From the IMG/VR virus record IMGVR_UViG_3300045988_173816, positions 1 through 64,000 of that record: a DNA stretch of 64,000 bases. One strand, 5' to 3'. This document shows, piece by piece, positions 1 to 64,000 of the stretch (positions are counted from its first letter, which is position 1; every line of letters begins with the position of its first letter). The stretch comes from a virus. The notes beneath the pieces were generated by a model. The model was not told the origin of the DNA and made no database searches. It saw only the letters and a list, made by a program, of their open reading frames with translations. The position numbers were made by a program, and so were the translations under genes.

Positions 1-2
1 AT

Positions 3-93
3 GGAAGATTACCCAAGTCTGGCTATAAGGGGACGGTCTTGAAAACCGTTAGGTCGGTAAAACGGCACGTGGGTTCGAATCCCACATCTTCCG
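3..93 (+). tRNA. tRNA-Ser (anticodon TGA), long variable arm
   Basis: Acceptor GGAAGAT/ATCTTCC, anticodon stem ACGGT/ACCGT around loop CTTGAAA, T-arm GTGGG-TTCGAAT-CCCAC; folded by eye. Confidence 0.8.
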
Positions 94-406
94 TTGAGTT
101 AGTGTTTAACTCAAGAAAAAGGCTTTTGACACTAGTGTAGTGTACAATAGAAGTTATAACTTAGTTTTAATTTGGTTTAATTTAATTCAATTAAATTAGA
201 ACTAGTATTTGTTATTGCTTAATACAATCTGAAGACAAGATACGGAAAGATTGTGAAGTTAAGTAATATACTTTAGTGTTTGGGACAAATTTTATTGTTT
301 TGAAATAAAATGGACTCTTAAACTATTTAAAGAACTGACCGTACAGTTCGTCTAATTGAAATATTAGATAAGAGGAATAGGGTAACTATTTATAGTTACT
401 TCTTTA

Positions 407-427
407 CGGAAGATGTGGGATTCGAAC
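407..427 (-). repeat. 21-nt perfect inverted copy of the 3' end (T-arm 3' half plus acceptor) of tRNA-Ser at 73-93
   Basis: CGGAAGATGTGGGATTCGAAC is the exact reverse complement of GTTCGAATCCCACATCTTCCG at 73-93; flanks do not fold into a tRNA. Confidence 0.85.
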
Positions 428-489
428 ACTTCGATAAACTATAACATTATTCAAAGTGTTAAATCGAAAGTAATCTAACCCAGTTTGGG

Positions 490-826
490 GTATCCACTGT
501 CAAAGGTGGGTACTTTGTAAGTCTAATTAGATTTTATTCTTTTATCTTCTTAGACTAGCTCTAGCGTTTCGTTAGACTTTCTTTTTCTAATTTATTTGGT
601 GTAACAATTGTCAAAGGTTGTTACATCGTTTCTCTTATTATTATTTGGATGTGATAAGGGAGAGATTAGCTTTCATTAAACCTTCCTTTCGGTTTAGGGG
701 TATCTACTGTTAAAGGTGGTTGCCTCGTTTCCTCTCTGCCTTTTTCTTGAGTTTTAGGTGTTGAGGGGAATTAGTCATATTGTTATCCTTTTAGGATAAA
801 GTTACTAACTGTAAAAGGTTAGTGAC
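490..826 (+). ncRNA. Array of 4 hairpins with conserved 8-nt loop TGTNAAAG and unrelated stems (same family as 35.7-36.5 kb)
   Basis: Hairpins at 490-513 (GTATCCAC/GTGGGTAC), 601-624 (GTAACAAT/GTTGTTAC), 700-723 and 801-826 (GTTACTAAC/GTTAGTGAC); loops TGTCAAAG, TGTCAAAG, TGTTAAAG, TGTAAAAG; no ORF. Confidence 0.6.
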
Positions 827-976
827 TATTTGAATCGTTAAGGTTCCTAAATATCGTCATTTGAGGAATGACAAAATCCTCTAACCTACAAAAGTTAGGG
901 TTTTAAAGAACCTCCGTTACGCTCATGTTCGCGACAAGAAGCGTAGAAGTATTGTCAACTTCGGATAAAGACAGGT

Positions 977-1047
977 TGAGCTATGTCTAAGCGGTAAAGA
1001 TAGACTTTGATAGTCGAAATGCGTGGGTTCGATTCCCACTAGCTCGA
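977..1047 (+). tRNA. tRNA-like gene with non-canonical anticodon arm (identity unresolved)
   Basis: Acceptor TGAGCTA/TAGCTCG and T-arm GTGGG-TTCGATT-CCCAC are good; putative anticodon loop TTTGATA sits in a mismatched stem. Confidence 0.4.
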
Positions 1048-1109
1048 TAACTTTCTGAGTAAGACTTTAATAAAACTTTGTTCATCACTTACTTGCTTAG
1101 AAAGGTTTT

Positions 1110-1195
1110 GGAGAATTACTCAAGAGGTTGAAGAGGATGGTTTGCTAAGTCATTAGGTCGTTCGCGGCGCAGGGGTTCGAATCCCTTATTCTCCG
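1110..1195 (+). tRNA. tRNA-Ser (anticodon GCT), long variable arm
   Basis: Acceptor GGAGAAT/ATTCTCC, anticodon loop TTGCTAA, T-arm AGGGG-TTCGAAT-CCCTT. Confidence 0.75.
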
Positions 1196-1397
1196 TAGTT
1201 TGTTGAAGCGAGGTGAATGGACAGAAGTCTAAAACGCTTTTGAGGTACTTGTTTTCTAGAGTTAAGTCTTTCAAAAGTAAGACTCGCTATATAAATCACA
1301 TAATGTCCCCGTTTACTGGTATAACCTCTTGCTGGTAAACTTTTTTATTAGGCACAGATATACTTTTAATGAGTAAAGAGAGTGAGGTATCCGAGAA

Positions 1398-1842: not shown

Positions 1843-4800
1843 ATGTTAAAAGTAAGTGGACACGGTTCAATTCGTAAAATTAAAGGTGGAGCTGCGGGTA
1901 TCATTACGCTTTCTGCTCTATTTTTGGGGTTGCAAGGAGTGAGTGCTGATGAGGTAACATCAACAAGTACAAATGAACTAACAACTGAGCTTTCATCTGC
2001 AACGGATAAGGGAGAAGTTTCCAAGGAAGAGACTAAAGTTGAAGATAAGAAAACAGAAGAAAAAACTGAGGTTAAATCTGATGTAGTTTCAACTGAAGCT
2101 TCTACTGAGAAGAAGGAAGAAGTAAAACCTTCTGAAAAAGAAGTCCCAAAAGATACAGATACAGAAACTTTTACTAAAGCTGAAAGTAAAGAGTTTGATA
2201 TTGCTAAGAAAGATGCTGTGGAAAATGGGGTTTCTGTAAAAGAAGACACTAAACCAAGCATTAAAGATTCTGAGAAAGAAGCTCAAGAAGATTTAGCAAA
2301 ACAAACAAAAGACTTGAAAGATGCTCAGAAAACACAAGTAGGTTCTGATGCGATTACTTCTTTGGATAAAGAAAAACTAACAGAAGCAGGAATTAAGGTT
2401 AAAGATGGGAAAGTCGAAATCTTTACAGACCTTGAAAAAATGGCTGCTTTTGTAAACCAACAAAGTAAAAATATTGCTAAAGATATTGAGTCTAAACACG
2501 GTATCGAAAAAGATGTGGCTTTAGCAACTAAAGAGCTTAAAGGTGCAGGTATTGAAGTAGTTGTTGGTGCAGAGGTTGTTAAATCTTCACCAGATGAAGC
2601 TTTAAAAGCAGTAGCTGAACTTCAAACACAAGTAGCAAGTGCTCTTAAAACTAAACAAGAGTTGGATAGTGCTTTTCTTGCTTTACAAGAACGTGCTAAA
2701 GCAGCAGGTTTGTTAACTAAAGAAGGTAAAACAGTTACTTTAGAAAGTGCTAAAGATGCTAAAGACTTTCTAGCAAAACAAACTGAAGAAGTAAATGCTT
2801 TGATTAAGTCTCTAACTGAGGGGAATAAACAAGTTAAAGCTGCAGTAGCTAAAGTTGAATCTTATGGTGTTAAAGTCACTACAACTGAGGGTACTAAAGT
2901 TGACACTGTTGAAAACCTAACTAAATTGGTTTCTGCACAAGTAAGTAAATTTGATGCTTTGATTAAGTCAATTGATGAAAGCAAAGGTCTAATTGATTCT
3001 ACCGTAGCTAAAGCAAAACAAGCAGGTGTATCCTTGGAGGGTGAAACTGTTGTTAATTTGGCTAAAGGTGAAGAAACTAGCTTGAAAGAAAAAGTTGCAA
3101 GTGCTTTGAAAGAGTTGGATGCTGCAACTCAAGTGCAAACTTCAACTAAAGCTGAGTTTGAGAAATTAGTTTCTGATGCACGCGCTAAAGGTTTAACTGT
3201 AAATATTACAGGTGCTAAGAAAGTTGAAGTTTCAGGGGTATCAAAAGAACTTGAAGCGATTAAAACTAAGATTGCACAGGCTTTGGCAAATAAAAATAAA
3301 GCACAAGTTGATTATGAGACTGCTTTGAAGAACTCACAAGAAGCTAGTCGTTTAGCAGAAGGTTCAACGGCTAAAAAAGAGGGTAATGTTTATAAACAAA
3401 GTTTGACCATTAAGTCCAATGGTACAAAAGGTTCTGTAAGTGTGAAGGTTACGGGTAGCGCTGAGATTGTATCTGTAGAATTGGTTGATCCTACAGGTGC
3501 AAAAGTACCTTCTGTTAAAACTTTAGCAGACTTAACTGCGTACACTGATTTTAGTAAGACTGGAAATTACACAGTTAATTATACTTTCCGAGCTAAAGAT
3601 AACGGTACAGGTTCAGTGGTATCTTCTGCAAACACTCAAGGTGTAGCAGCAGTAGAGGGTAAAGCTACAGGTACTTTGTCAGTTACTACTAAGGCTCCAG
3701 TTTCTACAAATGTAACTAATGAGTCTAAACCTACTGTTTTGGATATTGTTTTAGACTTTAGTTCATCTTACCGTTATAAGATTTTCGATTCAATTGATCA
3801 AGCTAAGATGTTAATTAAAGAGGCTTTGACAAATGATAAGTCAAAAGTAATTATTCAAGCTTATAATTACAATAGTAAAACTTCTTATGGCGTTCAAACT
3901 GGTGATTCCGAGGGGTATTCAACTACTTTATTAACTAAACAAGAAGCTTTAGATATTTTAGACAAACTAAAAGCATTGGCTAAACGTCAACCGTCCTTGG
4001 GTAGTTCAGATGCTTTGGGGTACAACGAGTATTTCGCTGCTATCGGTAAAACTTTTGGAGATAAAAATTACACAGATTCAACTTCTGCAACAGCCATTAT
4101 CCCATTCGAGGATGTAGTTCGTAAGTTCATCACAGATACAGATATCGTTTCAGTTATTCAGTTTACAGATGGTTGGACTGCAGGAGTATCTAGTAATGGT
4201 ACAACTGCTTCAGTCGAAAATATTGATATTACTTTTGCTGAATGGGCTAAGCATAGAGCTAAAACTTTCATGACTGTTATTAACAAAAACGTTACAAAGG
4301 CTTCTGAGGGTGATTCAGATAAAGACACAAACTCCGACCAGGCATTTGAAGCTATGCAACGCGTAGGACACCCAAATATCTATGATATGACAGGTAAAGA
4401 TCGTGCAGTTGTGGATAAAGAGTTGTTAGCTAAATTTAAAGAAACTGCAATTGAAAAAGTAACTTCTACAAAAGGCGAAGACCAACTAGTAACTGTATCT
4501 ATCACTGGTACTAAAACTGCAAAAGTTACTAAAGCAACTCTCAAAGGTGCTACTAACAAAGACTTACCTATTAAAGATGGTAAAGTTAACTTCTCTGAAA
4601 AACTACCAGACGGAACTTGGACAGTTAACTACGAACTTTCAGGAGATGGTGATGTTACCGTAACTGCAACTGTCGCAGGAAAAGAAGTAGTAAAAGAAAC
4701 TAAGAGTCTTAAAGAAGTTAAAGGTGCTGAAGGTACTTCTGCAACTAAGACTGATAACATTAAAGCATTGGTTGTTCCAAACAAACCTTCTACTGCTCCA

Positions 4801-5151
4801 ATTTCAGTTGAGGGGTTAGTTGTAACTGCTAAGTCTGTACGTTTAGGTACTGTTGAGTCTGACGCTACTACAGTAACTATTGAGAAAGAAGTTAAGAAAG
4901 CTACTTTCAAAGAAACTGTTTCTCCGATTACATTTGAGCGTGAGGTTGTTCCTACACAAGCAGAGGTAACTACGCATGATGTTTACGTTAAGACTCCAAA
5001 ACCTCAACCTAAACCTCAACCAGAAGGTAAAACATTGCCTAAAACTGGTGAATCTAGTGATATTTCTGTACAAGCTGCGGGTGCGGGTATCGGTTTAGTA
5101 GGTCTTCTAGCTTTAGCTGGAGCTTCAAAACGTTCTCGTAAAGAAGACTAA
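1843..5151 (+). CDS. Cell-wall-anchored surface protein: YSIRK-like signal peptide, long helical Ala/Lys/Glu-rich repeats, vWA-like domain, LPXTG sorting signal
   Basis: N-term GSIRKIKGGAAGIITLSALFLG; DxSxS-like motif VLDFSSSY; C-term LPKTGE plus hydrophobic stretch plus KRSRKED. Confidence 0.85.
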   Translation: MLKVSGHGSIRKIKGGAAGIITLSALFLGLQGVSADEVTSTSTNELTTELSSATDKGEVSKEETKVEDKKTEEKTEVKSDVVSTEASTEKKEEVKPSEKEVPKDTDTETFTKAESKEFDIAKKDAVENGVSVKEDTKPSIKDSEKEAQEDLAKQTKDLKDAQKTQVGSDAITSLDKEKLTEAGIKVKDGKVEIFTDLEKMAAFVNQQSKNIAKDIESKHGIEKDVALATKELKGAGIEVVVGAEVVKSSPDEALKAVAELQTQVASALKTKQELDSAFLALQERAKAAGLLTKEGKTVTLESAKDAKDFLAKQTEEVNALIKSLTEGNKQVKAAVAKVESYGVKVTTTEGTKVDTVENLTKLVSAQVSKFDALIKSIDESKGLIDSTVAKAKQAGVSLEGETVVNLAKGEETSLKEKVASALKELDAATQVQTSTKAEFEKLVSDARAKGLTVNITGAKKVEVSGVSKELEAIKTKIAQALANKNKAQVDYETALKNSQEASRLAEGSTAKKEGNVYKQSLTIKSNGTKGSVSVKVTGSAEIVSVELVDPTGAKVPSVKTLADLTAYTDFSKTGNYTVNYTFRAKDNGTGSVVSSANTQGVAAVEGKATGTLSVTTKAPVSTNVTNESKPTVLDIVLDFSSSYRYKIFDSIDQAKMLIKEALTNDKSKVIIQAYNYNSKTSYGVQTGDSEGYSTTLLTKQEALDILDKLKALAKRQPSLGSSDALGYNEYFAAIGKTFGDKNYTDSTSATAIIPFEDVVRKFITDTDIVSVIQFTDGWTAGVSSNGTTASVENIDITFAEWAKHRAKTFMTVINKNVTKASEGDSDKDTNSDQAFEAMQRVGHPNIYDMTGKDRAVVDKELLAKFKETAIEKVTSTKGEDQLVTVSITGTKTAKVTKATLKGATNKDLPIKDGKVNFSEKLPDGTWTVNYELSGDGDVTVTATVAGKEVVKETKSLKEVKGAEGTSATKTDNIKALVVPNKPSTAPISVEGLVVTAKSVRLGTVESDATTVTIEKEVKKATFKETVSPITFEREVVPTQAEVTTHDVYVKTPKPQPKPQPEGKTLPKTGESSDISVQAAGAGIGLVGLLALAGASKRSRKED

Positions 5152-5295: not shown

Positions 5296-5565
5296 ATGAA
5301 TCTTAGAGTAATTGTAAAGGGTTGTGACGATAGTACAGACTTTGAATTAGTTTGTACTGATGAGCAATACGCTTTCCTAAGAGAGTTTGCAAGTGCAACA
5401 CAAACGGTATCCACTTTTTCTTGCATGCCTATTGTCAAATTGCAAACTAGTTCAGGGGAGGAGGAAGATATTCCAACTAACTCAGATAACCTTAAATGGG
5501 TTGAAGAGGTCGAAGAAAATGGGGATGATAATTCTCACTATGTGTTAGACACCACCAAACTTTAA
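5296..5565 (+). CDS. hypothetical acidic protein (89 aa)
   Basis: ORF track; strong RBS GAGGAGGGG. Confidence 0.75.
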   Translation: MNLRVIVKGCDDSTDFELVCTDEQYAFLREFASATQTVSTFSCMPIVKLQTSSGEEEDIPTNSDNLKWVEEVEENGDDNSHYVLDTTKL

Positions 5566-5571
5566 TATTAA

Positions 5572-5944
5572 GGGGTCGTCTGGATTCGACAGGCGGTTAG
5601 ACTTTTTAACCTCGCACCGAGTGACTACGTTATAGTCGAACTTAAACATAACTGCAAATAACAATGCACCAGTTCGTATGGCTGCCTAAGCCTTTGGCTT
5701 CGGTAGTTGATATGAACACAAGTAAAATAGTCGAATAGACGAGCGACTGAGATAGGTACCGGTATCTTTTAGTTGCTATAAATCTCGGTACTCGCAACTA
5801 AGGTTTCTCAACTTAGTGTGTTAAATAGAGATATAACTTTTAGTTTTGTGCGTTTCCTAAAAGTCGAATGTTGAAACGTAGCAGTGCGCAGTAAGGTTAA
5901 CTGGAAAGGTCGTTTGGACGTGGGTTCGACTCCCACCGGCTCCA
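5572..5944 (+). ncRNA. ssrA: tmRNA (transfer-messenger RNA), predicted tag ANNNAPVRMAA
   Basis: 5' GGGGTCGTCTGGATTCGACAGG hallmark; 3' T-arm GTGGG-TTCGACT-CCCAC with acceptor CGGCTCC pairing the 5' end; internal frame GCA AAT AAC AAT GCA CCA GTT CGT ATG GCT GCC TAA. Confidence 0.85.
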
Positions 5945-6326: not shown

Positions 6327-6548
6327 ATGGCTAAAGAACACTATCGATGTAGCTTAGGAACTAAAAAGGTCACTAAGTGGGGAAACAGTAAGGGTATCCT
6401 TATACCAACTGCGGTTTTAGAAAACTTAAATTTGTCTGAGGGTAGTGAGGTAGAGTTTATTTTTGAAGATGGGAAGATTGTTTTAAGAAATAAGTCTGAG
6501 CAGTTGGATATTCCAAACTATGATTTAGATGAACTTTTAAAAGAATAG
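6327..6548 (+). CDS. AbrB/MazE/SpoVT-type antitoxin-like DNA-binding protein (73 aa)
   Basis: KVTKWGNSKGILIPTAVLENLNLSEGSEVEF matches the swapped-hairpin MazE/AbrB signature; no toxin gene adjacent. Confidence 0.65.
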   Translation: MAKEHYRCSLGTKKVTKWGNSKGILIPTAVLENLNLSEGSEVEFIFEDGKIVLRNKSEQLDIPNYDLDELLKE

Positions 6549-6664: not shown

Positions 6665-7159
6665 ATGAAATTACTAAGAATGAGTGAGGGTTCTACTCTT
6701 ATATACAGTGAAACTATTCGTTACTTTTCACTTCCTAAGAGCTATCCTAGGTTATTAAAGATTTTTGAGAGATGTGGGTATCAATCTAATACTGATATGC
6801 TTTCGTTACTAGATACTTCCTCATTTAATCCTTTGTCTGGGGAATATAAAACTACTCAGAGTAATGAAAATGAACGTATGGGTTTCACTTTTGAGCAACT
6901 TGCTTTAAACCCATTAAATGAGATTCTAAACTGTGGGATTCAACTAATTTTAAATACTAAAACAAATCCTAATGGAGCTAATTTTCTTTGGTTTGTTGTT
7001 GTAGACTTCAATGATACTTATGAGTTGTTTACTCATAATTACGCCTCAATGCTTTCTGAAATCCCTATGACTGAAGAAACAAAGTTTGAACGACTACATC
7101 TCCAACGTGAGTACGAAAGAGAGATTAAACTATTGCAAGAGTACCGAAAAGCTCTCTAA
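6665..7159 (+). CDS. hypothetical protein (164 aa)
   Basis: ORF track; RBS AAGGTGG. Confidence 0.7.
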   Translation: MKLLRMSEGSTLIYSETIRYFSLPKSYPRLLKIFERCGYQSNTDMLSLLDTSSFNPLSGEYKTTQSNENERMGFTFEQLALNPLNEILNCGIQLILNTKTNPNGANFLWFVVVDFNDTYELFTHNYASMLSEIPMTEETKFERLHLQREYEREIKLLQEYRKAL

Positions 7160-7468: not shown

Positions 7469-7601
7469 TTGTTGGAAATAGCATACCATTTCTCAGAGTG
7501 GAGGTGTGGGTTCAAGTCCTTCCTAGATCGTTAATCTAGTAGTATAAGCAACAAATGTTTAAAAGAGGTTACGCAACTGAGATAAGGGTATCCTCAAACA
7601 T

Positions 7602-9034: not shown

Positions 9035-9327
9035 ACAGGCTTGAGGGTATCTAACACCCCTGTAGGTTCCTTGTACGGTTTAAAAGATGATAGAAATGAA
9101 CTAGTTGGTGTGGAAGAGGTGCTTTTGTGAATTCTTCTAGTCAACAAAGTAACAAAGAACCGAGATATTCGGATTATTTGAGTTTAAACACTTTAAACAG
9201 TATGTTTCAATCTATAGCTTCAGTTTCTTATGTTGATTACAGAGTTGTAGCAACTGTTTTACATTTAATTATTGAACTTTGTTTAAAGAAAAGGTGTTCT
9301 CCCACCTATTAAGCGGAGGCGATAAAG

Positions 9328-9860
9328 ATTGTCCTAAATAAGACAATTAAACTGTTTCATTATGTAACTTAAATCTAATGGTAAAACCATTATTATCGAG
9401 CTTTGCTTGTAAATTTTGCCACTTGCCGATGAGGTGGGATATAAATGATTCGGTTCGTGAAATTTTGCCACATACTAGGTTGTGGGATATAAATAATCTA
9501 GTTTGTAAAAAAAATTGCCCTAAATAAGACAACTAAACTGTTTCGTTAAGTAAAACGTTAAACCAACGGAGATACCATTACCGTCAAGCTTTGCTTGTAA
9601 AGTTGGCAATTAAATCGACCTGAGTAAGTCACCTTAACTGCTCTAGGTGATACCATACCTTTGTACTTAGATACATAAAGTTGGCAAAAATTTGTCCTAA
9701 ACACGACATTAAACTATTTCGTCTCTTAGACGTTAAACGAGCGTTGACTTTAGGTAGCTACCTCACGGTTATCTAAACGAGCTTCTGATTAGGGTTTTCG
9801 GTATACACCGCGGGTGGGGATTCAAAACCGAAGTTTACTTGTAGTTGATTTGTAAATTTG
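9328..9860 (+). ncRNA. Three tandem units of about 180 nt, each opening with the box (A/T)TTG(T/C)CCTAAA(T/C)A(A/C)GACA-N-TAAACT(G/A)TTTC (orphan guide-RNA-scaffold-like units)
   Basis: Unit starts at 9328, 9514 and 9691. The same box follows the stop codon of the TnpB/Cas12-like ORF at 15951. Units A and B also share AGCTTTGCTTGTAAA. No credible ORF. Confidence 0.55.
9792..9833 (+). ncRNA. Hairpin GGTTTT/AAAACC with loop core CCGCGGGTGGGGA
   Basis: Same stem and loop core as 10301-10332; loop core shared with 10171-10213. Confidence 0.45.
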
Positions 9861-28359: not shown

Positions 28360-28393
28360 TATTTTATGAAGTTTAGTGAAAGGGGTTCGAAAA

Positions 28394-44222: not shown

Positions 44223-44270
44223 AACACTTGCGGTATCTACCTCTGCCAACCAAATCGAAAATGTAACAGA

Positions 44271-53583: not shown

Positions 53584-55014
53584 ATGTTCGACAAATTAAG
53601 AAACTTAATCAAAGGACAACCTTCCTTTGATTTGTCTCTTTCTCGGAACTACACGGAAAAGGAATTACAAAATATTGCGTTACTCCTTAAAGATAACCCA
53701 GATCGACAAAGAGAATTTGAAAACCTTTATACTCAGTTTGGGATTGATACAGAGAACTTGAATTTGTTTCAACAAAATGCTGCAAAAGTGATTGATAAAT
53801 TAGATAAGTTTGTTTCTTTGTCTAAGAGTGCAGAGAATTTAGTTGAGCAATTAGTTGAAGAATTAGTTTCTCAAACAGTTATTTGGGACTCTACAAAAGG
53901 AGAGGTTTTACCTTCTCCTAAACCAGTGCGATATCTAGCAGATGCGAAAACTCTCGTTTCCTTGCAAGAGCAAGGTGTTCAGTTTAGTGGGTATATGTGT
54001 AAGACAGATATACCAGAGTCAAGCTCTAAAGTTCTTCTAAGTCAATACAACTCGTATGTAAAGACTGGGAACAAACTTTTCTATGACTTATTTAGACAAG
54101 GGTTGGACATTTTAGATTTAGACCCTTTTGTATATGAGTTATTAAACCACGACCCAAACACAATGTCAAATTGGCTCTTTGCGATTAAAGAGGTTGTAGA
54201 TAAAACTCAGTTCTTCAAAATTCCAAAGACTCGTATCATAAAAGTACCTTTAGCTTTATTACAAAGTACACGTGTATACGAGTTTCAAGATTTAAACCCT
54301 TTAAGTTTGGAGATTATTAACCGTTTTGCTATGAAGGTTTTTGATTTAGACTTGGAAAAAGATTACTTTATCAAAACAGGTACGTTCTCGTCTAAGTTTG
54401 ACTTTAGAAACGCCAAAGTTACCAAAGGTCAAGAAGTTTCAGAGCTAGGTTCGTACTTGTGGTTTATTCAACACCAAGCAAGTCAGTTCGCTTCTCCATT
54501 AAATAATAAAGTGGTTTATGGTGTTTCTTCAAACAATGAATGGGTGGTTCGTGAATTTATTGAGGATAAAGAAGACAATCCTACAATTTACAATGGTTTA
54601 CCTTTGCACACCGAATACCGAGTGTTTGTAGACTTTGATACAAAAGAGATTATCGGTATCTCCCCGTACTGGGAACCCTCAGTTATGAAAGAACACTTCT
54701 TAGACTTAGGTAGTTTAAATGATGTTCAAAAACAACACGATTACATCAACTACATCAACCATGAAGAAACTTTAATGAAACGCTACGAAGATAACAAAGA
54801 CCTAGTGGTATCCGAAGTTACCAAGTTGCTCAAAGATTGTAAATTGAATGGTCAATGGTCTATAGATATCATGCAAAATGGGTCTGATTTTTGGTTAATT
54901 GATATGGCCAGAGCTTCTGAGTCTGCTTTGTCAGAGTGCGTACCAAAGGAAAAATTAAAACAAGCACCGTTGCCTTTTATGATTGAAGATAGGTTGCTTG
55001 AACTAGGAGATTAA
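53584..55014 (+). CDS. hypothetical protein (476 aa), possibly ATP-grasp-like
   Basis: FIKTGTFSSKFDFRNAKV and WSIDIMQNGSDFWLIDMARASES recall phage R2K-type ATP-grasp proteins; weak. Confidence 0.3.
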   Translation: MFDKLRNLIKGQPSFDLSLSRNYTEKELQNIALLLKDNPDRQREFENLYTQFGIDTENLNLFQQNAAKVIDKLDKFVSLSKSAENLVEQLVEELVSQTVIWDSTKGEVLPSPKPVRYLADAKTLVSLQEQGVQFSGYMCKTDIPESSSKVLLSQYNSYVKTGNKLFYDLFRQGLDILDLDPFVYELLNHDPNTMSNWLFAIKEVVDKTQFFKIPKTRIIKVPLALLQSTRVYEFQDLNPLSLEIINRFAMKVFDLDLEKDYFIKTGTFSSKFDFRNAKVTKGQEVSELGSYLWFIQHQASQFASPLNNKVVYGVSSNNEWVVREFIEDKEDNPTIYNGLPLHTEYRVFVDFDTKEIIGISPYWEPSVMKEHFLDLGSLNDVQKQHDYINYINHEETLMKRYEDNKDLVVSEVTKLLKDCKLNGQWSIDIMQNGSDFWLIDMARASESALSECVPKEKLKQAPLPFMIEDRLLELGD

Positions 55015-55016: not shown

Positions 55017-55397
55017 ATGTTACATCGAATTGAAATTTTTAAGGAGCCATACTCCCTCGCAAAAGATAACAACTCAGATTTCAAATTAAAGTTGCTACAA
55101 ACTATTGAAAGTGAACACTTATCTACAGTTGTTGATTTCGGTATCGACTTCATGCGCTCAGAGTTTGAGTTTGCTGATTTGAGTGCTGATGATATAACTG
55201 TAGGTAGTTTTATATGTTCTGATCCAAGTGGCTCGGATAATTCTGTAAAAGAAGATGCTTTAAGGCTACTATATCAATACTTAGTAGGAGATTTGTACTC
55301 TTTCATTCTCATTACTTTTTATGATAAGAGGGTTTGGTCTAAGGTTTCTTATATTGTCAAATATGAAGAACTGATTTCTGAGGAAGTAGGTGACTAA
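55017..55397 (+). CDS. hypothetical protein (126 aa)
   Basis: ORF track; RBS TAGGAGA. Confidence 0.7.
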   Translation: MLHRIEIFKEPYSLAKDNNSDFKLKLLQTIESEHLSTVVDFGIDFMRSEFEFADLSADDITVGSFICSDPSGSDNSVKEDALRLLYQYLVGDLYSFILITFYDKRVWSKVSYIVKYEELISEEVGD

Positions 55398-55399: not shown

Positions 55400-55630
55400 G
55401 TGGTTTCCAAAGAAAGAAAATTTCTAAAGACGGTTGACTTATATTCTAGGGTAGTTGATGCAGGTTTAACTTGGGGTTTTACAGATTATGAAGAAGTTGC
55501 TGAACACAAGCGGTTAACGGGGTTGTTTGCAACTCAAATTAGTCGCCAAAATCTTTGTACAAAGAGAAACCAAAAGAGTACACTCGGTATCTCTCGCAGA
55601 TTTTTGCTTATGTTTTTGGTTATTTGTTAG
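55400..55630 (+). CDS. hypothetical protein, possibly the 5' part of a frameshifted gene
   Basis: GTG start behind RBS GAGGAAGTAGG; overlaps 55555-55890, which has no RBS or ATG. Confidence 0.45.
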   Translation: MVSKERKFLKTVDLYSRVVDAGLTWGFTDYEEVAEHKRLTGLFATQISRQNLCTKRNQKSTLGISRRFLLMFLVIC

Positions 55631-55934: not shown

Positions 55935-56576
55935 ATGAAATTGTTTAAAGATAGGTCTTACTCTGAGTTACTTGTAAAATATCAAGCGTTGCTAACTGAT
56001 AATAGTGCTTTGAATGCAGAGCGTAAAAAACTTGAACAGTTAACGGAGTTGATTAAACCAGAGGTTGAAAAAGCCAAAGAACTTGATATGATTGAGTTTA
56101 CAGTTGATGTAACTGATGTAAAAACTATGGAGTATGATTACTTGGGTATCATTATGGGGAAACTAGAAAGTCCTTATATTTACTGTAAGTATTTCAAGGT
56201 AAAGGATCGATTGTACTTGACTTGTGCTAAAGAGAAGTTTAAAGCTTATAAGCGATTAAGTCACTTGGAAAATTGGATGCTTCTATTCTCTGCTTTAATT
56301 GCATTGACAATTAGTCCTTTAGTTCATTGGATTATTGTTTGGTTGTTTAGAGGGTACTATGACACTTCTATACCTTATCCATTTACCGACTGGAATGCTA
56401 CTGTTACAGGTGAGCAAATAGGTACTTACATCAGTACTCATGGGTTTGTACCAGCTTTTACTTTCTTAGTAAGTGTAATAATCGGCATGCTTTCCGTATT
56501 GATTTTTACTCGTTACAGTAAGTTTAGTCCTTACAATAAGGATTTAATTTACTGGTCAAATGTTAAGAAAAACTAA
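55935..56576 (+). CDS. membrane protein (coiled-coil N-term, 2-3 C-terminal TM helices)
   Basis: ORF track; LLFSALIALTISPLVHWIIVWLF and FVPAFTFLVSVIIGMLSVLIF. Confidence 0.7.
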   Translation: MKLFKDRSYSELLVKYQALLTDNSALNAERKKLEQLTELIKPEVEKAKELDMIEFTVDVTDVKTMEYDYLGIIMGKLESPYIYCKYFKVKDRLYLTCAKEKFKAYKRLSHLENWMLLFSALIALTISPLVHWIIVWLFRGYYDTSIPYPFTDWNATVTGEQIGTYISTHGFVPAFTFLVSVIIGMLSVLIFTRYSKFSPYNKDLIYWSNVKKN

Positions 56577-57005: not shown

Positions 57006-57036
57006 GGGTATCAACGTTATTTAGGGGGTTAAAGGT

Positions 57037-58186: not shown

Positions 58187-58325
58187 AGAGCTACATGAAC
58201 TTGCGGTATCTTTGAAAATTGAGGATTTTGAGATTTACGCTAGGGGTAATGATGGCGACTTTTCTTGTTTTTATGACTTAGATTATGATAAGTCTGGAAC
58301 AAATAAAGAAGTCTATTTATATTAA
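58176..58325 (+). CDS. small ORF (49 aa)
   Basis: The ATG overlaps the upstream stop region; below the track cutoff. Confidence 0.45.
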   Translation: MTIKELHELAVSLKIEDFEIYARGNDGDFSCFYDLDYDKSGTNKEVYLY

Positions 58326-58584: not shown

Positions 58585-58631
58585 AACACCTAGCGGTATC
58601 TTATAAAATCAATAAAAGTCAAGGTTAAACC

Positions 58632-58691: not shown

Positions 58692-59486
58692 ATGAAACAG
58701 TCATCACAGTTGGATCAAGAGATTAAAGAGCTAGAAGACAAATTAGGTTCTTTGAGAGCAGAACAACAACTATTAAAAGCACAAGAGAGTTTGGCAAGAG
58801 AGAAAGCTTCTAGTTTGCTTGAAGACGAAACTTTGAGCAATTTAATTCAAAAACTTCAGAATGAGCTAGTGAAATGTGACTTAGGTTTGGCTTTAGGTAT
58901 TGACTACAAGCGTAATTGGGTATTTATCGTTAGTGATCGAGAGTCTAAAGACGGTCTTTCTAGCTTTAAAATCTTAGACCCTAAAGATAAACGTGTATTC
59001 TTTGGTTTAGTAGAATCTTTTAACCAAACAATTACTTTTGAAGGTATCCAAACTTGGTTGCAAAGCTCCTTGAAATTGGTGGTTAGTTTATTGAAAATTA
59101 AAAACTTGATTTGTTTGAGTGGTGCAAGTTTAACTTTTAGGTCTTATGATAATGTTTTGGATAACCTACACTTTACTCTAAATGGTTTAGATTTAGTAGC
59201 TTATGAGTGTGTACTAACAGTAAAAAGACCATATACATTAGTTATGACTCGGTTGTTGAACTATGACTCTGAATTTTCAGATATTTATTTCTTAGGTGAT
59301 GGGGTATCGCTCCAAACACGGGCTAACTTCTACAATATTCATGATGACGGTTACCTCGGAAATTTTGAACAAAGATTATCTGTACATCAGTCGTTTACAA
59401 AGTTCAGCGAACTTACTAAAGTAGCAAAAGAGTTGGAAGACAAACTTATTGCATTTTATGAAGCCATAGAGATTCGATTTGAGTAG
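58692..59486 (+). CDS. hypothetical protein with N-terminal coiled coil (264 aa)
   Basis: ORF track; RBS AAAGAGG. Confidence 0.7.
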   Translation: MKQSSQLDQEIKELEDKLGSLRAEQQLLKAQESLAREKASSLLEDETLSNLIQKLQNELVKCDLGLALGIDYKRNWVFIVSDRESKDGLSSFKILDPKDKRVFFGLVESFNQTITFEGIQTWLQSSLKLVVSLLKIKNLICLSGASLTFRSYDNVLDNLHFTLNGLDLVAYECVLTVKRPYTLVMTRLLNYDSEFSDIYFLGDGVSLQTRANFYNIHDDGYLGNFEQRLSVHQSFTKFSELTKVAKELEDKLIAFYEAIEIRFE

Positions 59487-60129: not shown

Positions 60130-60939
60130 ATGAAAACAACAGAAGAATTGAGAAAAGAAGTAGAAAAGTTGAGACGAGAAGAGTTTGATGCTTGTTTAGA
60201 CTTTTCTCATGAAATTAAACCTTTAGAGGAGCAATTAAAGGCAGCAAAACAAGGCGATTTGCTTTTTGAAGATGTTCAATTACAAAGTAAACTTGCGTAT
60301 GTAAATGATTTACTCAGCAATAGCGGTATCCCACTTGTGGTTGCTCGCAAGTCTGATGTGTTGGGAATTACTTCAAAAGAACAAACCTTAAATGTTTATA
60401 AACAACTTGGTTTGTTTTTTAGAAATAATTATGATGTAGGACTTCAGCTCTTAGATTCTTTTGAGGTTGCAGAGTCGGTTGGAGAATTATTAGCTCAACT
60501 GAACTTAGTGGAACAACAACTAGATTTTCTAGGTTTCTTGTGTTCTTTAAATCCAAATTGGGAATTTCCACCTTACTTCATAGGTACGCTTGGTGAAGAA
60601 GTTTCCCTTTTATATTATGAATTGGGAGGTTTTCCAGTCATTGATACAAAGTTGCTTGTGTCTTATGACAAAGAAACTGACCGCTATACAGTTAAGCTCA
60701 AAAACCTGATAGAGTGGTTCTGTGAAGAAGATGTTGAAGTGCCTTCTGATACATTTAAAGATGTCAAAACAACTGTAGGTTTTAAGGACGTAGAGAGTTT
60801 GACTTTAACTGTTAGTAAAGAAGGTGTTCGCTCTACCGATTTAAAGAGCGCCTTAGAAGAACTGAAAGCTCGCTTGTTAGAACTCAATGAAAAAGGTAAA
60901 GACAAAGTACCTGTGCAGATTACCTTAGTTACAGAATAG
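60130..60939 (+). CDS. hypothetical protein with N-terminal coiled coil (269 aa)
   Basis: ORF track; RBS GGGAGGA. Confidence 0.7.
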   Translation: MKTTEELRKEVEKLRREEFDACLDFSHEIKPLEEQLKAAKQGDLLFEDVQLQSKLAYVNDLLSNSGIPLVVARKSDVLGITSKEQTLNVYKQLGLFFRNNYDVGLQLLDSFEVAESVGELLAQLNLVEQQLDFLGFLCSLNPNWEFPPYFIGTLGEEVSLLYYELGGFPVIDTKLLVSYDKETDRYTVKLKNLIEWFCEEDVEVPSDTFKDVKTTVGFKDVESLTLTVSKEGVRSTDLKSALEELKARLLELNEKGKDKVPVQITLVTE

Positions 60940-60953: not shown

Positions 60954-61634
60954 ATGATTGATTTACTAAAAACAAAACCGAACTTGATTTGCGAGTCTGA
61001 GACTGTCTTTGATTGGTTAGAGGGTAAGCTACTCGTTACTGGTTCGCTACTGTCTTTTTTGGATGCATTAGAAGTTCATGATATACCTTACTTTGTAGTT
61101 CTAAATTTAGAGGGTATCGTCAGTCCTCCGACTTTTTTAACTGTCACTTTACAAAACCCTTTAGCTTGTTCTAAACGGACAAACCTTAACCTAGCGACTT
61201 ATTACCGTAGTCTCGAATCCCAAGAGGAAAGCTTGGACTTATTTAACACTTTAAGATCTTATGTGCCTTTGATGGAAGTTCTCTATACTTATAACAAAAG
61301 AAAACCAAATTTGGTTATAAATTACACTGAGATACTTCAAGGTGTAGTTACCATGAGTTACTATGACTTCTCAGTTCGTTTGACTCATGATTCTAAATTT
61401 GGACTAACAGATGTATTTGTAAGTACCTATTCAGACACGGCTAACTACTTTGAATTGAAAACTCAAGGTGCACAAGGTTCTCCATTAGTTGTTCAACTTT
61501 CTGTAGATGAACAAACTGAGTTAACGCTTACAAGTAAGAATAACTATGTACGTTTGAGTCTTTTAACTGAGACTTTGGACTCTATGTTCTCAGACCTTGC
61601 GCAGTACAAAGAAACGGGTCTTAAAATTGATTAA
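60954..61634 (+). CDS. hypothetical protein (226 aa)
   Basis: ORF track; RBS GAAGGAGA. Confidence 0.7.
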   Translation: MIDLLKTKPNLICESETVFDWLEGKLLVTGSLLSFLDALEVHDIPYFVVLNLEGIVSPPTFLTVTLQNPLACSKRTNLNLATYYRSLESQEESLDLFNTLRSYVPLMEVLYTYNKRKPNLVINYTEILQGVVTMSYYDFSVRLTHDSKFGLTDVFVSTYSDTANYFELKTQGAQGSPLVVQLSVDEQTELTLTSKNNYVRLSLLTETLDSMFSDLAQYKETGLKID

Positions 61635-61651
61635 AAGAAAAGGAAGTAAAC

Positions 61652-62353
61652 ATGAAACAAAAACTAAAACAGTTCGCCACTTCTCAGTGGTTCGATTTAC
61701 TAGGTGTAGTGATGGTTCTCACCATAGCAATTTCTGCAGGGTATCATACTAAATGGCTCAACCAGTTAGTTGATTGGGGTGCTTGGACTGTCTTCATTCC
61801 TTTTGGTTGGATTTCCGTAGTAAATGTAGTGATTTCTATGATGTCCACTCGATTTACGGGAAAATTGAGTAAGTTAGGAAATTATCTTGGAATTATCAAT
61901 GCAGTTTTGTCTGGTTTGATTGACTACATTTTGGGTAACAAAGCTGCGATTATCACTTACCCAGTAACTTTCTTGATTTATCTAGGGGCTATTTATTGGT
62001 GGGGTAAATCACAAGAGGGGAAAGCGAATACGTTGTCTAAAGCTCAACTTAATTGGATTGTACCAGTTATGATTGTGGGTTCTTTTGCCTTTTCTTATTG
62101 GACTAACTACTTGGGGTATCAGGGAAATATGAACCCTCTCGCTTATGTAACAACTGTAGCATTTGCTTTGTCTTTGGTGGCTAATGGTTTGAATGTACTT
62201 AAACTCACAACTCAATGGAGTTTTTGGTTGTTTTATAACTTCGTACAATTAGCAAAAGCACTTATTCAAGGGAACTTTGCTAATGTTGGTAAATATATTT
62301 TCTATATTCTGAATAGTCTTGGTGCTTTGTTTATTTGGAAGGACAGTGAATAA
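61652..62353 (+). CDS. pnuC: PnuC-like nicotinamide riboside/NMN transporter (about 7 TM)
   Basis: Multi-TM, Trp-rich pattern (WFDLLGV..., IYWWGK, WSFWLFYNFVQL) and a size typical of PnuC. Confidence 0.45.
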   Translation: MKQKLKQFATSQWFDLLGVVMVLTIAISAGYHTKWLNQLVDWGAWTVFIPFGWISVVNVVISMMSTRFTGKLSKLGNYLGIINAVLSGLIDYILGNKAAIITYPVTFLIYLGAIYWWGKSQEGKANTLSKAQLNWIVPVMIVGSFAFSYWTNYLGYQGNMNPLAYVTTVAFALSLVANGLNVLKLTTQWSFWLFYNFVQLAKALIQGNFANVGKYIFYILNSLGALFIWKDSE

Positions 62354-62354
62354 A

Positions 62355-62615
62355 ATGGGTGTTGAATTAGGTAAACAATTAGAAGATAAAGTAGTTATTT
62401 TAGGTAGGACTTCTGATGACTACTTTAAAGATACTCGTAAGTTAGATTTCTTGCTGGGACGTCTTTCTTCCCAACTTTCTTCTGAAGTTATTGATTTAAC
62501 TACTAGAAAGAGTGGGTTAGATTGTCTAATTGAATATAATGATATGATTCGAAAACTACATAGTAAAAACTTTGATTGGCTCAAGAATAACAGAAGTTGG
62601 ATTCGTAAATTTTAG
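62355..62615 (+). CDS. hypothetical protein (86 aa)
   Basis: Start moved to the ATG at 62355. Confidence 0.6.
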   Translation: MGVELGKQLEDKVVILGRTSDDYFKDTRKLDFLLGRLSSQLSSEVIDLTTRKSGLDCLIEYNDMIRKLHSKNFDWLKNNRSWIRKF

Positions 62616-62635
62616 AAAGGTAAAGGTGTTAGTTG

Positions 62636-63097
62636 ATGGTAGTAGAAGATAACTTTGCAGGTCAGCAAGACTTACTGTCTCAAAACTCTTTTTATATGAA
62701 CTTAGGTAAGGATAAGGTTGAGTACCTTTTTAGTTCTATGGAGAGAGCTAAGCAAGTTTCAAATCTTGTGGGAATAGCAGAAAGTTTAGGTTTAAAACAT
62801 TCTCAAAATTTTGTAGATACTCTTGCTATTCGAGTCAATTCTAGCTTTTATATCTCGCAAGATTTGGATGGAAATATTTATATGGTTGGGAAGTATTCAG
62901 ACTTCACCTATATTTCATCTGATACTATAAAAGAGCTAGTCTCAGAGGGGTATGACTTGGAGTTGGATGGTCTTCTAATTTTGATAACTACAAACAAAAG
63001 TGAAACTGAACGAGAACAAATAGAGTCTCTAAAGGCTTTAGGGGATAAGTATCCTCTTGGTTTTTCTAGGTTTAACTCTAATGTCACAAGTCAGTAA
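62636..63097 (+). CDS. hypothetical protein (153 aa)
   Basis: ORF track; RBS AAAGGTAAAGG. Confidence 0.65.
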   Translation: MVVEDNFAGQQDLLSQNSFYMNLGKDKVEYLFSSMERAKQVSNLVGIAESLGLKHSQNFVDTLAIRVNSSFYISQDLDGNIYMVGKYSDFTYISSDTIKELVSEGYDLELDGLLILITTNKSETEREQIESLKALGDKYPLGFSRFNSNVTSQ

Positions 63098-63115
63098 ATG
63101 GGTAAGGATATAGAT

Positions 63116-63508
63116 ATGACAATAATTTTCACAAAAGCAGACATAGAGTCAATGTATATGACTCTTGAAAAATTAGGTTCAACCTTTGATGAAAAGCAAT
63201 TGCAGTTTAAATTAGATGTCTTAAAAGCACGTGGTTTTTACATTGTAGATATTTCTTTGGTATCTTCTCATGTAGGTTCAACTTTCAATACAAATACTTA
63301 TCTTATTCGAGTTGTAAAACCTAAGTACGAAGTTAAAATTGAAAACCAGAACTATGATTCTGATACTAATAATTGGACTTCAACAGGTTCTAAATCGGTA
63401 GGTCTTTATTCTTCGCAGGAGGTTGCTCAAAGGGTTGTTGACAATAAAAAGAAAGATGGTTTCAAAGCAACTATGGTAGTTCATAGTCCTTTAGATTTGC
63501 CTTTATAA
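63116..63508 (+). CDS. hypothetical protein (130 aa)
   Basis: The ATG at 63116 sits behind AAGGA; the ATG at 63098 is an alternative. Confidence 0.6.
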   Translation: MTIIFTKADIESMYMTLEKLGSTFDEKQLQFKLDVLKARGFYIVDISLVSSHVGSTFNTNTYLIRVVKPKYEVKIENQNYDSDTNNWTSTGSKSVGLYSSQEVAQRVVDNKKKDGFKATMVVHSPLDLPL

Positions 63509-63524
63509 GACAAAAGGGGTTTTT

Positions 63525-64000
63525 ATGGTGTTTTACACTGACTTAAATCATCATCAACGTAGTTTAGTAGATTTAGGGTTGATTTTACATGTTGTTTATA
63601 CTTTAAGCAACTTACCCTCTCTAAGTGAAGTTTCTTCTTGTATCAATGTAACTACTGAAGGCTTACATAAACATATTATTTACACAGATGAATACGGAAA
63701 CTGTTTAGAATTTGAGCTTTCAACGAAGATTTGTTCTTCTAAAGCTAATCAAGTTATACGGTTTATGGCTTTTCACTTTTATCATGTTTGCTTTCCAGAT
63801 AATAAATTAACTGTTGATTTAGGAGGACAAATATTGAGAAGTTCTGATATTTCTTTTAAATTAACAGAGTTTATTTGGTATAAAATCTTTGGGGAGTCTT
63901 CTCTTCTCATGAAGAGATTGTTGTTTAGCAGAGATGATTTTCTTGCTTGTTTAAACAAGGATGATACCGAATTAGAGGTACTGATTCAAACTTATGTAGA
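63525..64000 (+). CDS. hypothetical protein, 3'-truncated by the window edge
   Basis: ATG behind RBS AAAGGGG; the frame stays open to the end of the window; absent from the track because no stop is reached. Confidence 0.6.
   Translation, partial: MVFYTDLNHHQRSLVDLGLILHVVYTLSNLPSLSEVSSCINVTTEGLHKHIIYTDEYGNCLEFELSTKICSSKANQVIRFMAFHFYHVCFPDNKLTVDLGGQILRSSDISFKLTEFIWYKIFGESSLLMKRLLFSRDDFLACLNKDDTELEVLIQTYV

Follow-up and report, generated by a model that had tools for sequence, protein, structure and literature searches.

A dense, one-strand array of the word SGGTATC in a huge oral phage, and its possible use in lagging-strand priming

The first 64,000 nt of the IMG/VR virus record IMGVR_UViG_3300045988_173816, which we refer to as the window, carry a dense array of the hexamer GGTATC on the + strand. 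By exact count there are 102 copies, the first at 489 and the last at 63259, and only 6 copies in the reverse orientation (GATACC on the + strand), which corresponds to a polarity of 17:1 (Table 1). The observation is real and very strong. With the preceding base included (S, G or C), the word SGGTATC is a genome-wide signal under selection, needed every few hundred bases on one strand. We propose, with a probability of about 0.35, that these words are the preferred start sites of a phage DnaG-type primase on the lagging-strand template.

Results

Origin of the window

The window matches about 12.3-76.3 kb of a 284,100-bp human oral metagenome contig (ENA ERZ989696, k127_141467) without a difference, and its source is a huge phage of the human mouth. 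Several oral metagenomes in public archives hold the phage. GenBank phages gave no nucleotide match to the window and no protein match for a conserved 458-aa protein encoded in it, and most window proteins had no match in PHROG or Pfam. In IMG/VR, about 20 relatives of 200-280 kb were found.

Frequency and polarity of the word

The base composition of the window is A 32.0%, T 32.5%, G 20.7% and C 14.7%, not about 18% each of G and C as estimated in the original prediction, which had been made from the sequence by eye. The + strand is G-rich across the whole window (GC skew about +0.17). Mononucleotide frequencies predict 13.7 copies of GGTATC on the + strand and 9.6 on the - strand, and an order-2 Markov model predicts 12.6 and 8.4; dinucleotide-preserving shuffles gave 14.3 copies on both strands combined, with a maximum of 22. 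The excess on the + strand is about 8-fold over the order-2 Markov model (Poisson P = 5e-56 for 102 copies), whereas the - strand showed neither depletion nor excess (6 vs 8.4 expected, P = 0.26). No other hexamer had a higher z over a maximal-order Markov model or a stronger strand asymmetry than GGTATC.

The base 5' of the word is G in 53 of the 102 copies and C in 33 (84% S), and the base 3' of it is C in 36, T in 30, A in 25 and G in 11. The consensus of the window copies did not extend past 7-8 nt. When 262 non-identical sites from the phage and its relatives were pooled, weak preferences appeared for A at -11, Y at +6, a base other than G at +8 and a T-rich stretch from +23 to +26, together spanning about 35 nt.

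These counts bear out what had been read by eye. The original prediction gave about 102 copies on the + strand with the same first and last positions, placed about 6 reverse copies at the same six positions as the exact count, and described the 5' base as nearly always G or C and the 3' base as mostly C, T or A. Its example coordinates were correct except for two that were off by one (7588 for 7587 and 42118 for 42117). The two strands are not alike (102 vs 6), and the enrichment is far above the level of about 2-fold below which it would have given up the signal.

Spacing of the copies

The mean gap between copies in the window is 621 bp, with a mode at 260-400 bp. The coefficient of variation (CV) of the gaps is 0.71, compared to 0.99 +/- 0.09 for random placement (P = 5e-5), and is the lowest among 114 hexamers of similar abundance. 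Gaps shorter than 200 bp number 4 against 27.8 expected, and there are none below 120 bp. The under-dispersion reported originally was therefore confirmed, and the gap distribution is not exponential. In a 60-kb block of a compact relative, we counted 112 copies on the + strand and 7 on the - strand, with a CV of 0.48 and no gap beyond 1.5 kb; in conserved DNA, gaps reach at most about 1.5 kb. The array runs on into both flanks of the source contig. Such spacing is what one expects of a signal required once in each neighbourhood, a 'coverage' signal.

Independence from coding, gene position and structure

All long open reading frames (ORFs) of the window are on the + strand, and 80% of the copies of the word lie inside ORFs. 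The first base of GGTATC falls in codon phases 0, 1 and 2 in 28, 20 and 33 copies, and the remaining 21 copies are non-coding, in keeping with a non-coding share of 20% in the window. In every phase, where the peptide permits the word, it is used 5-10 times as often as codon usage would lead one to expect. Synonymous-codon shuffles that kept the proteins and the per-gene codon usage (n = 300) yielded 17.3 +/- 3.9 copies (maximum 28), whereas 83 were observed in genes. The distance from the word to the next gene start was that of random positions, the word was uniform along genes, and its predicted accessibility in RNA or single-stranded DNA was no different from that of controls.

The word had been taken for a polar signal at the nucleic-acid level rather than a peptide or codon effect, on the grounds that it occurs in all three codon phases, in intergenic DNA, in the gene of the transfer-messenger RNA (tmRNA, 5572-5944; copy at 5761) and in hairpins (copies 489 and 699 in the 5' arm of a repeated unit, copy 35913 in another hairpin). 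We found the copies in all these places, and the phases, the spacing and the synonymous shuffles agree with that view.

An artefact of composition or codon usage, a dispersed repeat or a promoter is hardly conceivable as the source of the array. Strong GC skew and a single coding strand do produce many asymmetric G-rich words, and an identical de novo scan of T7, employed as a positive control, picked up the T7 promoters as polar words. However, the Markov, dinucleotide-shuffle and synonymous-codon-shuffle controls all fell short of the observed count, which rules out a codon or composition artefact, and the polarity is kept even in stretches where the GC skew is about 0. The array is not a dispersed repeat because the flanks are not conserved. 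Since the scan is able to see the T7 promoters, and since here the distances to gene starts are as random, most copies lie within ORFs and no extended consensus exists, a promoter or another gene-linked signal is also ruled out.

TnpB elements were considered as well: the words are not the target-adjacent motif (TAM) or target site of these elements, as they do not adjoin the element boundary (28091 vs 28250).

Some copies take part in hairpins. A 46-nt hairpin unit occurs three times between tRNA genes (484-529, 595-640 and 694-739, spaced by about 100-110 nt), and in two of the three units the 5' stem arm carries the word. Small hairpins of the form GATACC N12-26 GGTATC are found at 22159/22191 and, in locus L022, at 7395/7413 and 7770/7789. 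Three of the eight reverse copies in 82 kb are thus 5' arms of small hairpins with a forward copy as the 3' arm, and two of these hairpins lie between tRNA genes. The hairpin that holds copy 35913 is just upstream of an IS605-orfB-II RNA (Rfam, 35976-36122), which has no TnpB ORF upstream (a solo omega-RNA-like unit) and lies in a 1.3-kb gene-free gap after the primase module.

Conservation in relatives and sister words

All the relatives keep the bias, as had been foreseen for a genuine signal, with 27-44 copies on the + strand vs 0-2 on the - strand per 21 kb. In relatives of about 85% nucleotide identity, 83-95% of the window sites were retained against 37% expected, and the bases within the word were 96-98% identical against 85% overall. 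Judged from these alignments, the word is under purifying selection site by site. In a relative of 80% identity, 10 of 25 sites were retained (26% expected), which indicates turnover too; in a compensation test on the 15 lost sites, the median distance from a lost to a gained site was like that of the null.

The density of the word is 0.97/kb in DNA absent from most relatives and 2.14/kb in shared DNA. One 1982-bp gap of the array contains a TnpB (IS605 OrfB) insertion (Table 1), which is recent; its ORF is the only ORF longer than 615 bp without the word. This TnpB (28376-29620) is absent from most relatives, and an 85%-identical copy is present in an unrelated large element of 43% GC from other oral or gut metagenomes, which suggests an insertion sequence (IS) moving between co-resident mobile genomes. 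In reference genomes, the best TnpB match had 57% identity. The 43%-GC element encodes a sortase, a penicillin-binding protein, an RNase H and a helicase.

Distant relatives were reached via primase homologues of 43-52% identity and scanned de novo against an order-2 Markov model. The scan returned the sister words GGGTATCT, GGGGTACT, TGAGGGTA and TTGGGTAT, each strictly confined to one strand in the relative concerned (Table 1), and all of them share the core GGGTA. In L033, GGTATC itself is unbiased (12:10). The unrelated 43%-GC element had no comparable word, with GGTATC at 10:7. Based on the sister words and on this element without the word, the signal is a property of the phage lineage, with drifting specificity, and the same two observations point to a phage-encoded reader.

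L027 and L029 also have an extreme GC skew (G 22-24%, C about 11%), and in these two relatives giant surface-protein genes (2,389-2,780 aa; Cna_B/FctA or Big domains) adjoin the HU and primase genes.

Orientation of genes and of IS605-type units

All the genes sampled, covering about 180 kb of the phage family, are co-oriented. This holds for 82 kb of the source contig, in which the polarity of GGTATC is 131:8, and for 74.5-134.4 and 143.2-181.2 kb of a 232-kb relative, in which it is 178:12. There was no minus-strand gene in the roughly 180 kb, and no polarity switch in the roughly 98 kb of this relative or in the 82 kb of the source contig. Because every sampled gene is co-oriented, strand cannot part a DNA-level from an RNA-level role, and the original caveat that the word is mRNA-sense stands.

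All TnpB/omega-RNA (IS605-type) units are likewise on the + strand. It is the lagging-strand template that receives the active top strand of IS200/IS605 elements on insertion (PMC5027513). Taken with the GC skew and with the shared direction of the word and all genes, the orientation of these units suggests that the + strand serves as the lagging-strand template, replication forks running the same way as transcription.

A DnaG-type primase as candidate reader

The TOPRIM protein singled out in the original prediction proved to be a genuine DnaG-type primase catalytic domain, but one without the zinc-binding domain. Its ORF matches PHROG 47 'DNA primase' (E 7.5e-22), Pfam Toprim_2 and the DnaG catalytic cores in PDB (E ~2e-4). 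An AlphaFold model built with 16 homologues in the alignment had a predicted local distance difference test (pLDDT) score of 92. Employing Foldseek, we found DnaG RNA-polymerase domains at the top (E ~2e-11, with superposition over the whole length), followed by T4 gp61 and T7 gp4. The catalytic residues E140 (the TOPRIM glutamate) and D182 and D184 (the DxD motif) are invariant in the homologues; the domain is catalytically intact. A helicase-binding domain is absent from the primase and from all its homologues.

Other features of the genome

Downstream of the primase gene, an ATP-cone ORF (34110-34499) is followed by the conserved 458-aa protein (36912-38288), which has an acidic C-terminal tail and may be a single-strand-binding protein, and then by a pair of Rad50-like (weak AAA_23) and Mre11-like (Metallophos) proteins at 38348-41078. 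In relatives, a C5-cytosine DNA methyltransferase (Pfam E = 4e-62) is encoded at 10671-11966 of L126, an IMG/VR relative, and at 6782-7892 of L031, in the latter about 0.9 kb downstream of the primase gene.

A PcsB-type coiled-coil protein with a CHAP hydrolase domain (44344-45603) is typical of streptococci, and the surface-protein domains SSSPR-51 and adhesin P1 are of streptococcal type. These are hints of a Streptococcus-like (Lactobacillales) host.

A large array of about 18 tRNAs, including three tRNA-Ser, occupies 2-10145 of the window and 6254-9799 of L022. The tmRNA carries the unusual tag ANNNAPVRMAA. The 3' end of tRNA-Ser(tga) has a perfect antisense copy of 22 nt (406-427 vs 73-94), 311 nt downstream of the tRNA, which may be the remnant of an integration or recombination site.

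TnpB-like ORFs lie at 14500-15948, 16612-17886, 21820-23154 and 28376-29620 on the + strand and share about 18% mutual identity. The 444-aa ORF at 21820-23154 has no Pfam match and is TnpB-like by position only; an IS605-orfB-I RNA (Rfam) directly follows it at 23171-23376.

Table 1. Copies of the word, the candidate reader and related features (window coordinates; 5' and 3' flanking bases in lower case)
Feature	Position	Strand	Remark
Array of 102 SGGTATC	1..64000	+ (sense, G-rich)	mean spacing 621 bp
GGTATC	489..494	+	gGGTATCc, repeated-hairpin 5' arm
GGTATC	699..704	+	gGGTATCt, repeated-hairpin 5' arm
GGTATC	1386..1391	+	aGGTATCc
GGTATC	1897..1902	+	gGGTATCa
GGTATC	2500..2505	+	cGGTATCg
GGTATC	3237..3242	+	gGGTATCa
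GGTATC	3618..3623	+	tGGTATCt
GGTATC	5086..5091	+	gGGTATCg
GGTATC	5406..5411	+	cGGTATCc
GGTATC	5761..5766	+	cGGTATCt, within tmRNA gene
GGTATC	6393..6398	+	gGGTATCc
GGTATC	6777..6782	+	gGGTATCa
GGTATC	7587..7592	+	gGGTATCc
GGTATC	9046..9051	+	gGGTATCt
GGTATC	10552..10557	+	cGGTATCc
GGTATC	10776..10781	+	cGGTATCc
GGTATC	11162..11167	+	gGGTATCg
GGTATC	11767..11772	+	gGGTATCc
GGTATC	12474..12479	+	cGGTATCc
GGTATC	12789..12794	+	gGGTATCc
GGTATC	13325..13330	+	gGGTATCt
GGTATC	13753..13758	+	tGGTATCc
GGTATC	14360..14365	+	cGGTATCc
GGTATC	15195..15200	+	cGGTATCt
GGTATC	16110..16115	+	gGGTATCc
GGTATC	16737..16742	+	gGGTATCc
GGTATC	17443..17448	+	cGGTATCt
GGTATC	18345..18350	+	tGGTATCg
GGTATC	19137..19142	+	cGGTATCa
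GGTATC	19959..19964	+	gGGTATCt
GGTATC	20097..20102	+	cGGTATCc
GGTATC	22191..22196	+	cGGTATCc, hairpin 3' arm with GATACC 22159
GGTATC	23650..23655	+	cGGTATCt
GGTATC	26187..26192	+	gGGTATCc
GGTATC	26453..26458	+	gGGTATCg
GGTATC	26729..26734	+	cGGTATCt
GGTATC	27044..27049	+	gGGTATCc
GGTATC	27646..27651	+	gGGTATCa
GGTATC	28091..28096	+	tGGTATCa
GGTATC	30073..30078	+	gGGTATCa
GGTATC	30335..30340	+	gGGTATCa
GGTATC	30540..30545	+	tGGTATCa
GGTATC	31019..31024	+	gGGTATCa
GGTATC	31375..31380	+	tGGTATCc
GGTATC	31705..31710	+	gGGTATCt
GGTATC	32658..32663	+	gGGTATCt
GGTATC	32953..32958	+	cGGTATCa
GGTATC	33285..33290	+	cGGTATCg
GGTATC	33525..33530	+	cGGTATCa
GGTATC	33792..33797	+	cGGTATCt
GGTATC	34387..34392	+	gGGTATCt
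GGTATC	34750..34755	+	cGGTATCa
GGTATC	35389..35394	+	tGGTATCt
GGTATC	35913..35918	+	gGGTATCt, in hairpin
GGTATC	37105..37110	+	gGGTATCc
GGTATC	37770..37775	+	gGGTATCa
GGTATC	38774..38779	+	gGGTATCg
GGTATC	39338..39343	+	gGGTATCc
GGTATC	39831..39836	+	gGGTATCc
GGTATC	40229..40234	+	gGGTATCa
GGTATC	40542..40547	+	aGGTATCa
GGTATC	40994..40999	+	gGGTATCt
GGTATC	41365..41370	+	gGGTATCc
GGTATC	41735..41740	+	tGGTATCt
GGTATC	42117..42122	+	cGGTATCc
GGTATC	42849..42854	+	gGGTATCc
GGTATC	43453..43458	+	gGGTATCa
GGTATC	43944..43949	+	aGGTATCc
GGTATC	44232..44237	+	cGGTATCt
GGTATC	45141..45146	+	cGGTATCa
GGTATC	45872..45877	+	gGGTATCa
GGTATC	46152..46157	+	gGGTATCt
GGTATC	46587..46592	+	gGGTATCa
GGTATC	46851..46856	+	gGGTATCt
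GGTATC	47351..47356	+	cGGTATCt
GGTATC	47686..47691	+	gGGTATCc
GGTATC	48242..48247	+	cGGTATCc
GGTATC	48362..48367	+	cGGTATCt
GGTATC	49094..49099	+	tGGTATCa
GGTATC	49481..49486	+	cGGTATCg
GGTATC	49875..49880	+	aGGTATCc
GGTATC	50422..50427	+	cGGTATCt
GGTATC	50704..50709	+	gGGTATCt
GGTATC	51314..51319	+	gGGTATCc
GGTATC	51615..51620	+	gGGTATCc
GGTATC	52442..52447	+	gGGTATCc
GGTATC	52570..52575	+	gGGTATCc
GGTATC	54655..54660	+	cGGTATCt
GGTATC	54807..54812	+	tGGTATCc
GGTATC	55140..55145	+	cGGTATCg
GGTATC	55586..55591	+	cGGTATCt
GGTATC	56145..56150	+	gGGTATCa
GGTATC	57007..57012	+	gGGTATCa
GGTATC	58205..58210	+	cGGTATCt
GGTATC	58595..58600	+	cGGTATCt
GGTATC	59043..59048	+	aGGTATCc
GGTATC	59303..59308	+	gGGTATCg
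GGTATC	60325..60330	+	cGGTATCc
GGTATC	61113..61118	+	gGGTATCg
GGTATC	61740..61745	+	gGGTATCa
GGTATC	62115..62120	+	gGGTATCa
GGTATC	63259..63264	+	tGGTATCt
Reverse copy (GATACC on +)	9571..9576	-	
Reverse copy (GATACC on +)	9649..9654	-	
Reverse copy (GATACC on +)	22159..22164	-	hairpin 5' arm, 3' arm = + copy 22191
Reverse copy (GATACC on +)	24515..24520	-	
Reverse copy (GATACC on +)	25786..25791	-	
Reverse copy (GATACC on +)	63963..63968	-	
TnpB (IS605 OrfB) insertion	28250..29854	+	absent from at least 16 of 18 relatives; 0 copies of the word
Stand-alone DnaG-type primase (RNA-polymerase domain, TOPRIM fold), candidate reader	32894..33664	+	256 aa
L031 (distant relative)			sister word GGGTATCT 28:0; GGTATC 50:0 in 15.9 kb
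L033 (distant relative)			sister word GGGGTACT 16:0, GGGGTAC 24:3; minimum gap 197 bp, CV 0.70
L027 (distant relative)			sister word TGAGGGTA 13:0
L029 (distant relative)			sister word TTGGGTAT 10:0

Discussion

Priming sites as the preferred reading

Defined template words whose 3' base is not copied serve as start sites for phage and bacterial primases (PMC2978363). In T7, the site 5'-GGGTC-3' gives the primer pppACCC, its 3' base being recognised but not copied (PMC2978363, PMC12839067); the enzyme uses 5'-(G/T)2GTC-3', with flanking bases adding to binding (PMC12839067), and the zinc-finger mutant H33A of the primase accepts d(GTA) (PMC2978363).

We suggest that the phage's own DnaG-type primase initiates at SGGTATC on the lagging-strand template, which would be the + strand if forks travel in the direction of transcription. 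A word of 6-7 bases would occur by chance only about every 5 kb, too rarely for a primase. Selection would then add sites where gaps are long, on the strand that is primed repeatedly, until about one site per 0.3-0.6 kb is reached; the other strand would stay at the chance level, recent insertions would be bare, and synonymous sites would be bent towards the word. Selection on one strand with a neutral reverse orientation is what a priming site predicts, as the lagging-strand template requires the word while its presence on the other strand does no harm. It is the neutral other strand, the bare recent insertion and the bent synonymous sites, all of which are observed, that led us to commit to primase sites. 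The core GGGTA would read like a T7-type site with GTA in place of GTC, and the 3' letters that vary by lineage (TC, C, T) could be further uncopied contacts. The reader may be the primase or a partner protein; like the role of the + strand as template, this reader and the primer sequence are what we infer.

Several points weigh against this reading. Its main weakness is the missing zinc-binding domain, which in T7 gp4 and bacterial DnaG reads the template word and sets the template trinucleotide (PMC2978363). Neither the primase nor its 15 homologues (n = 16) contain a cysteine cluster, there is no zinc-ribbon ORF beside the primase gene, and the zinc ribbons at other places in the 82 kb could not be linked to the primase. 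In the T7 control, the primase words were neither polar nor clearly enriched (GGGTC 39:55, TGGTC 79:62); since T7 primase words leave no such imprint, a genome shaped by its primase has no precedent there, and the analogy with T7 rests on mechanism only. The direction of replication was inferred, not observed, and no replicative helicase, DNA polymerase or origin was identified in the DNA sampled. Finally, with all genes co-oriented, a role at the RNA level or coupled to transcription fits the strand data equally well.

As a tentative extension of the priming-site reading, the whole phage family may hard-wire its lagging-strand synthesis: a zinc-finger-less primase or its partner would read a word of 6-8 bases, each lineage its own around the core GGGTA, every 300-600 bases along one strand of genomes of 230-285 kb, overriding synonymous choice. 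If true, this would be the first genome visibly shaped by primase specificity, and it would imply a new kind of priming-site recognition without a zinc-binding domain. The array would then be a map of potential Okazaki-fragment start sites that can be read from the sequence, and a natural example of a replisome constraining codon choice genome-wide.

Alternative mechanisms

The original prediction listed several mechanisms for a polar word; the list has been narrowed but not settled. The known Chi and KOPS (FtsK-orienting polar sequence) words are not enriched. A Chi-like role appears doubtful. Here the word, on the 3'-ended strand, would switch off a helicase-nuclease (the host AddAB/RexAB or a phage enzyme), so that entering phage DNA or rolling-circle tails would be shielded and channelled into recombination. 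Chi typically shows itself as short, polar words in excess on the G-rich (leading-sequence) strand, a neutral reverse orientation is as seen here, evenly spread sites would protect better, the Rad50/Mre11-like pair makes the phage probably recombination-dependent, and the sister words could mirror different hosts. However, the known Firmicute Chi words are not enriched in the window (AGCGG 19 vs 26.9 expected, GAAGCGG 0, GCGCGTG 0), although the host hints lead to the Lactobacillales, to whose phylum these words belong, and the large element with the 85%-identical IS, which probably has a similar host, is unbiased. The density of one site per 0.3-0.6 kb and the polarity of 17:1 exceed those of any Chi known to us. 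Nick sites, at or near which a phage nickase would cut the + strand in the manner of T5 and of phiKMV-like and tf/LUZ24-like phages, leaving regular interruptions in virion DNA, are unlikely. They offer a precedent for a strand-exclusive, enriched word conserved in a phage family, and both the conservation and the frame-independence match: WACTRTGAC/TACTRTGMC marks 13-14 nicks per 45 kb on one strand, mostly the coding strand, irrespective of genes and in about 60 related phages (PMC3517423, PMC11780129). Yet the nick words on record measure 7-19 nt, occur at a 5-10 times lower density and lie in clusters instead of being spread evenly (PMC11780129). A genome with about 450 nicks would be without precedent, there was no candidate for the nickase (by sequence and fold, the TOPRIM protein is a primase domain), and reverse copies, which would cause nicks in both strands, are not avoided.

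Unlikely, too, is a role in RNA, in which GGUAUC in transcripts, or the word in the non-template strand, would bind a phage or host factor such as an elongation or antitermination factor, a protecting RNA-binding protein or a processing enzyme. It would account for a word that is always mRNA-sense where all genes in about 180 kb are on that strand, for copies in RNA-type hairpins with G-U pairs, and for a neutral reverse orientation, as expected of an untranscribed strand. But the word has no link to gene starts, gene ends or codon phase and no bias in predicted single-strandedness, a cleavage or decay signal is hard to reconcile with the copy in the stable tmRNA, and there is no evident reason for even spacing in RNA; no factor known to us requires a 6-mer every 600 nt. 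Modification or evasion, with the word as the site of an asymmetric methyltransferase or of hypermodification, or as the result of escape from a Type III enzyme as with EcoP15I in T7, is very unlikely, even though relatives encode a C5-cytosine methyltransferase and the EcoP15I word in T7, at 36:0, shows that strand-exclusive words arise in unidirectional phage genomes. A Type III enzyme needs inversely oriented sites, and evasion would explain a missing orientation but not an even, 8-fold excess of the other. In the window, the rare orientation is as frequent as chance predicts and the common one is positively selected, whereas the excess in T7 falls among codon-driven words. Evasion as in T7 was therefore rejected: the pattern here is enrichment without avoidance.

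If the word turns out instead to serve as a private signal of the Chi or nick kind, no known system of that sort would match its density and polarity, and it would offer a way into the question of how huge phages distinguish their DNA from the host's. The word and its sister words also provide a simple signature by which this uncultured phage family can be recognised in metagenomes, with strand and orientation, and DNA without them is flagged as recently acquired.

Comparison with known systems

Polar over-represented words are already known as Chi, KOPS and nick words. What sets the array apart is the number of about 450 copies per genome, the near-absolute polarity, the even spacing, the selection at synonymous sites and the lineage-specific sister words; full-text searches of the literature for the word or the phenomenon found nothing relevant.

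KOPS and the SpoIIIE recognition sequences (SRS), which serve FtsK and SpoIIIE, are similarly polar G-rich words on the leading-sequence strand, but they are 7-8-mers acting on duplex DNA in chromosome segregation, occur at far lower density, and a phage would not be expected to require them; the words GAGAAGGG and GGGNAGGG are not enriched in the window. GAAGAAG, the KOPS word of Lactococcus lactis, occurs at 25:4 in the window against 6.0 and 2.3 expected, which is probably driven by Glu and Lys codons. The EcoP15I word of T7 (CAGCAG 0 : CTGCTG 36) shares with the array a short asymmetric word on one strand of a unidirectionally transcribed phage genome, yet it reflects avoidance of one orientation, in contrast to positive selection of the common one at synonymous sites. 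The nick words of T5, phiKMV and tf/LUZ24 are, like the array, strand-exclusive, enriched, family-conserved and indifferent to frame (PMC3517423, PMC11780129), but they number 4-14 per genome. Chi resembles the array in being polar, over-represented, on the G-rich strand, neutral in reverse and variable between lineages; the array is unrelated to the known Firmicute Chi words, denser, far more polar and strongly under-dispersed, and is absent from another large element of a probably similar host.

The sites of T7 gp4 and DnaG are likewise short template words that are G-rich on the 5' side and have GT(N) on the 3' side, served by a DnaG-type catalytic domain that is phage-encoded as here, with a weak contribution of the flanks. 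They are read on the lagging-strand template, an assignment that for the + strand of this phage would follow from the IS605 orientation and the GC skew. The primase of this phage is without the zinc-binding domain that reads the word in the known systems. Known primase words are effectively 3-5 nt long, frequent by chance and, in T7, without a polar imprint, whereas the word described here has 6-8 nt, is enriched 8-fold and is evenly spread.

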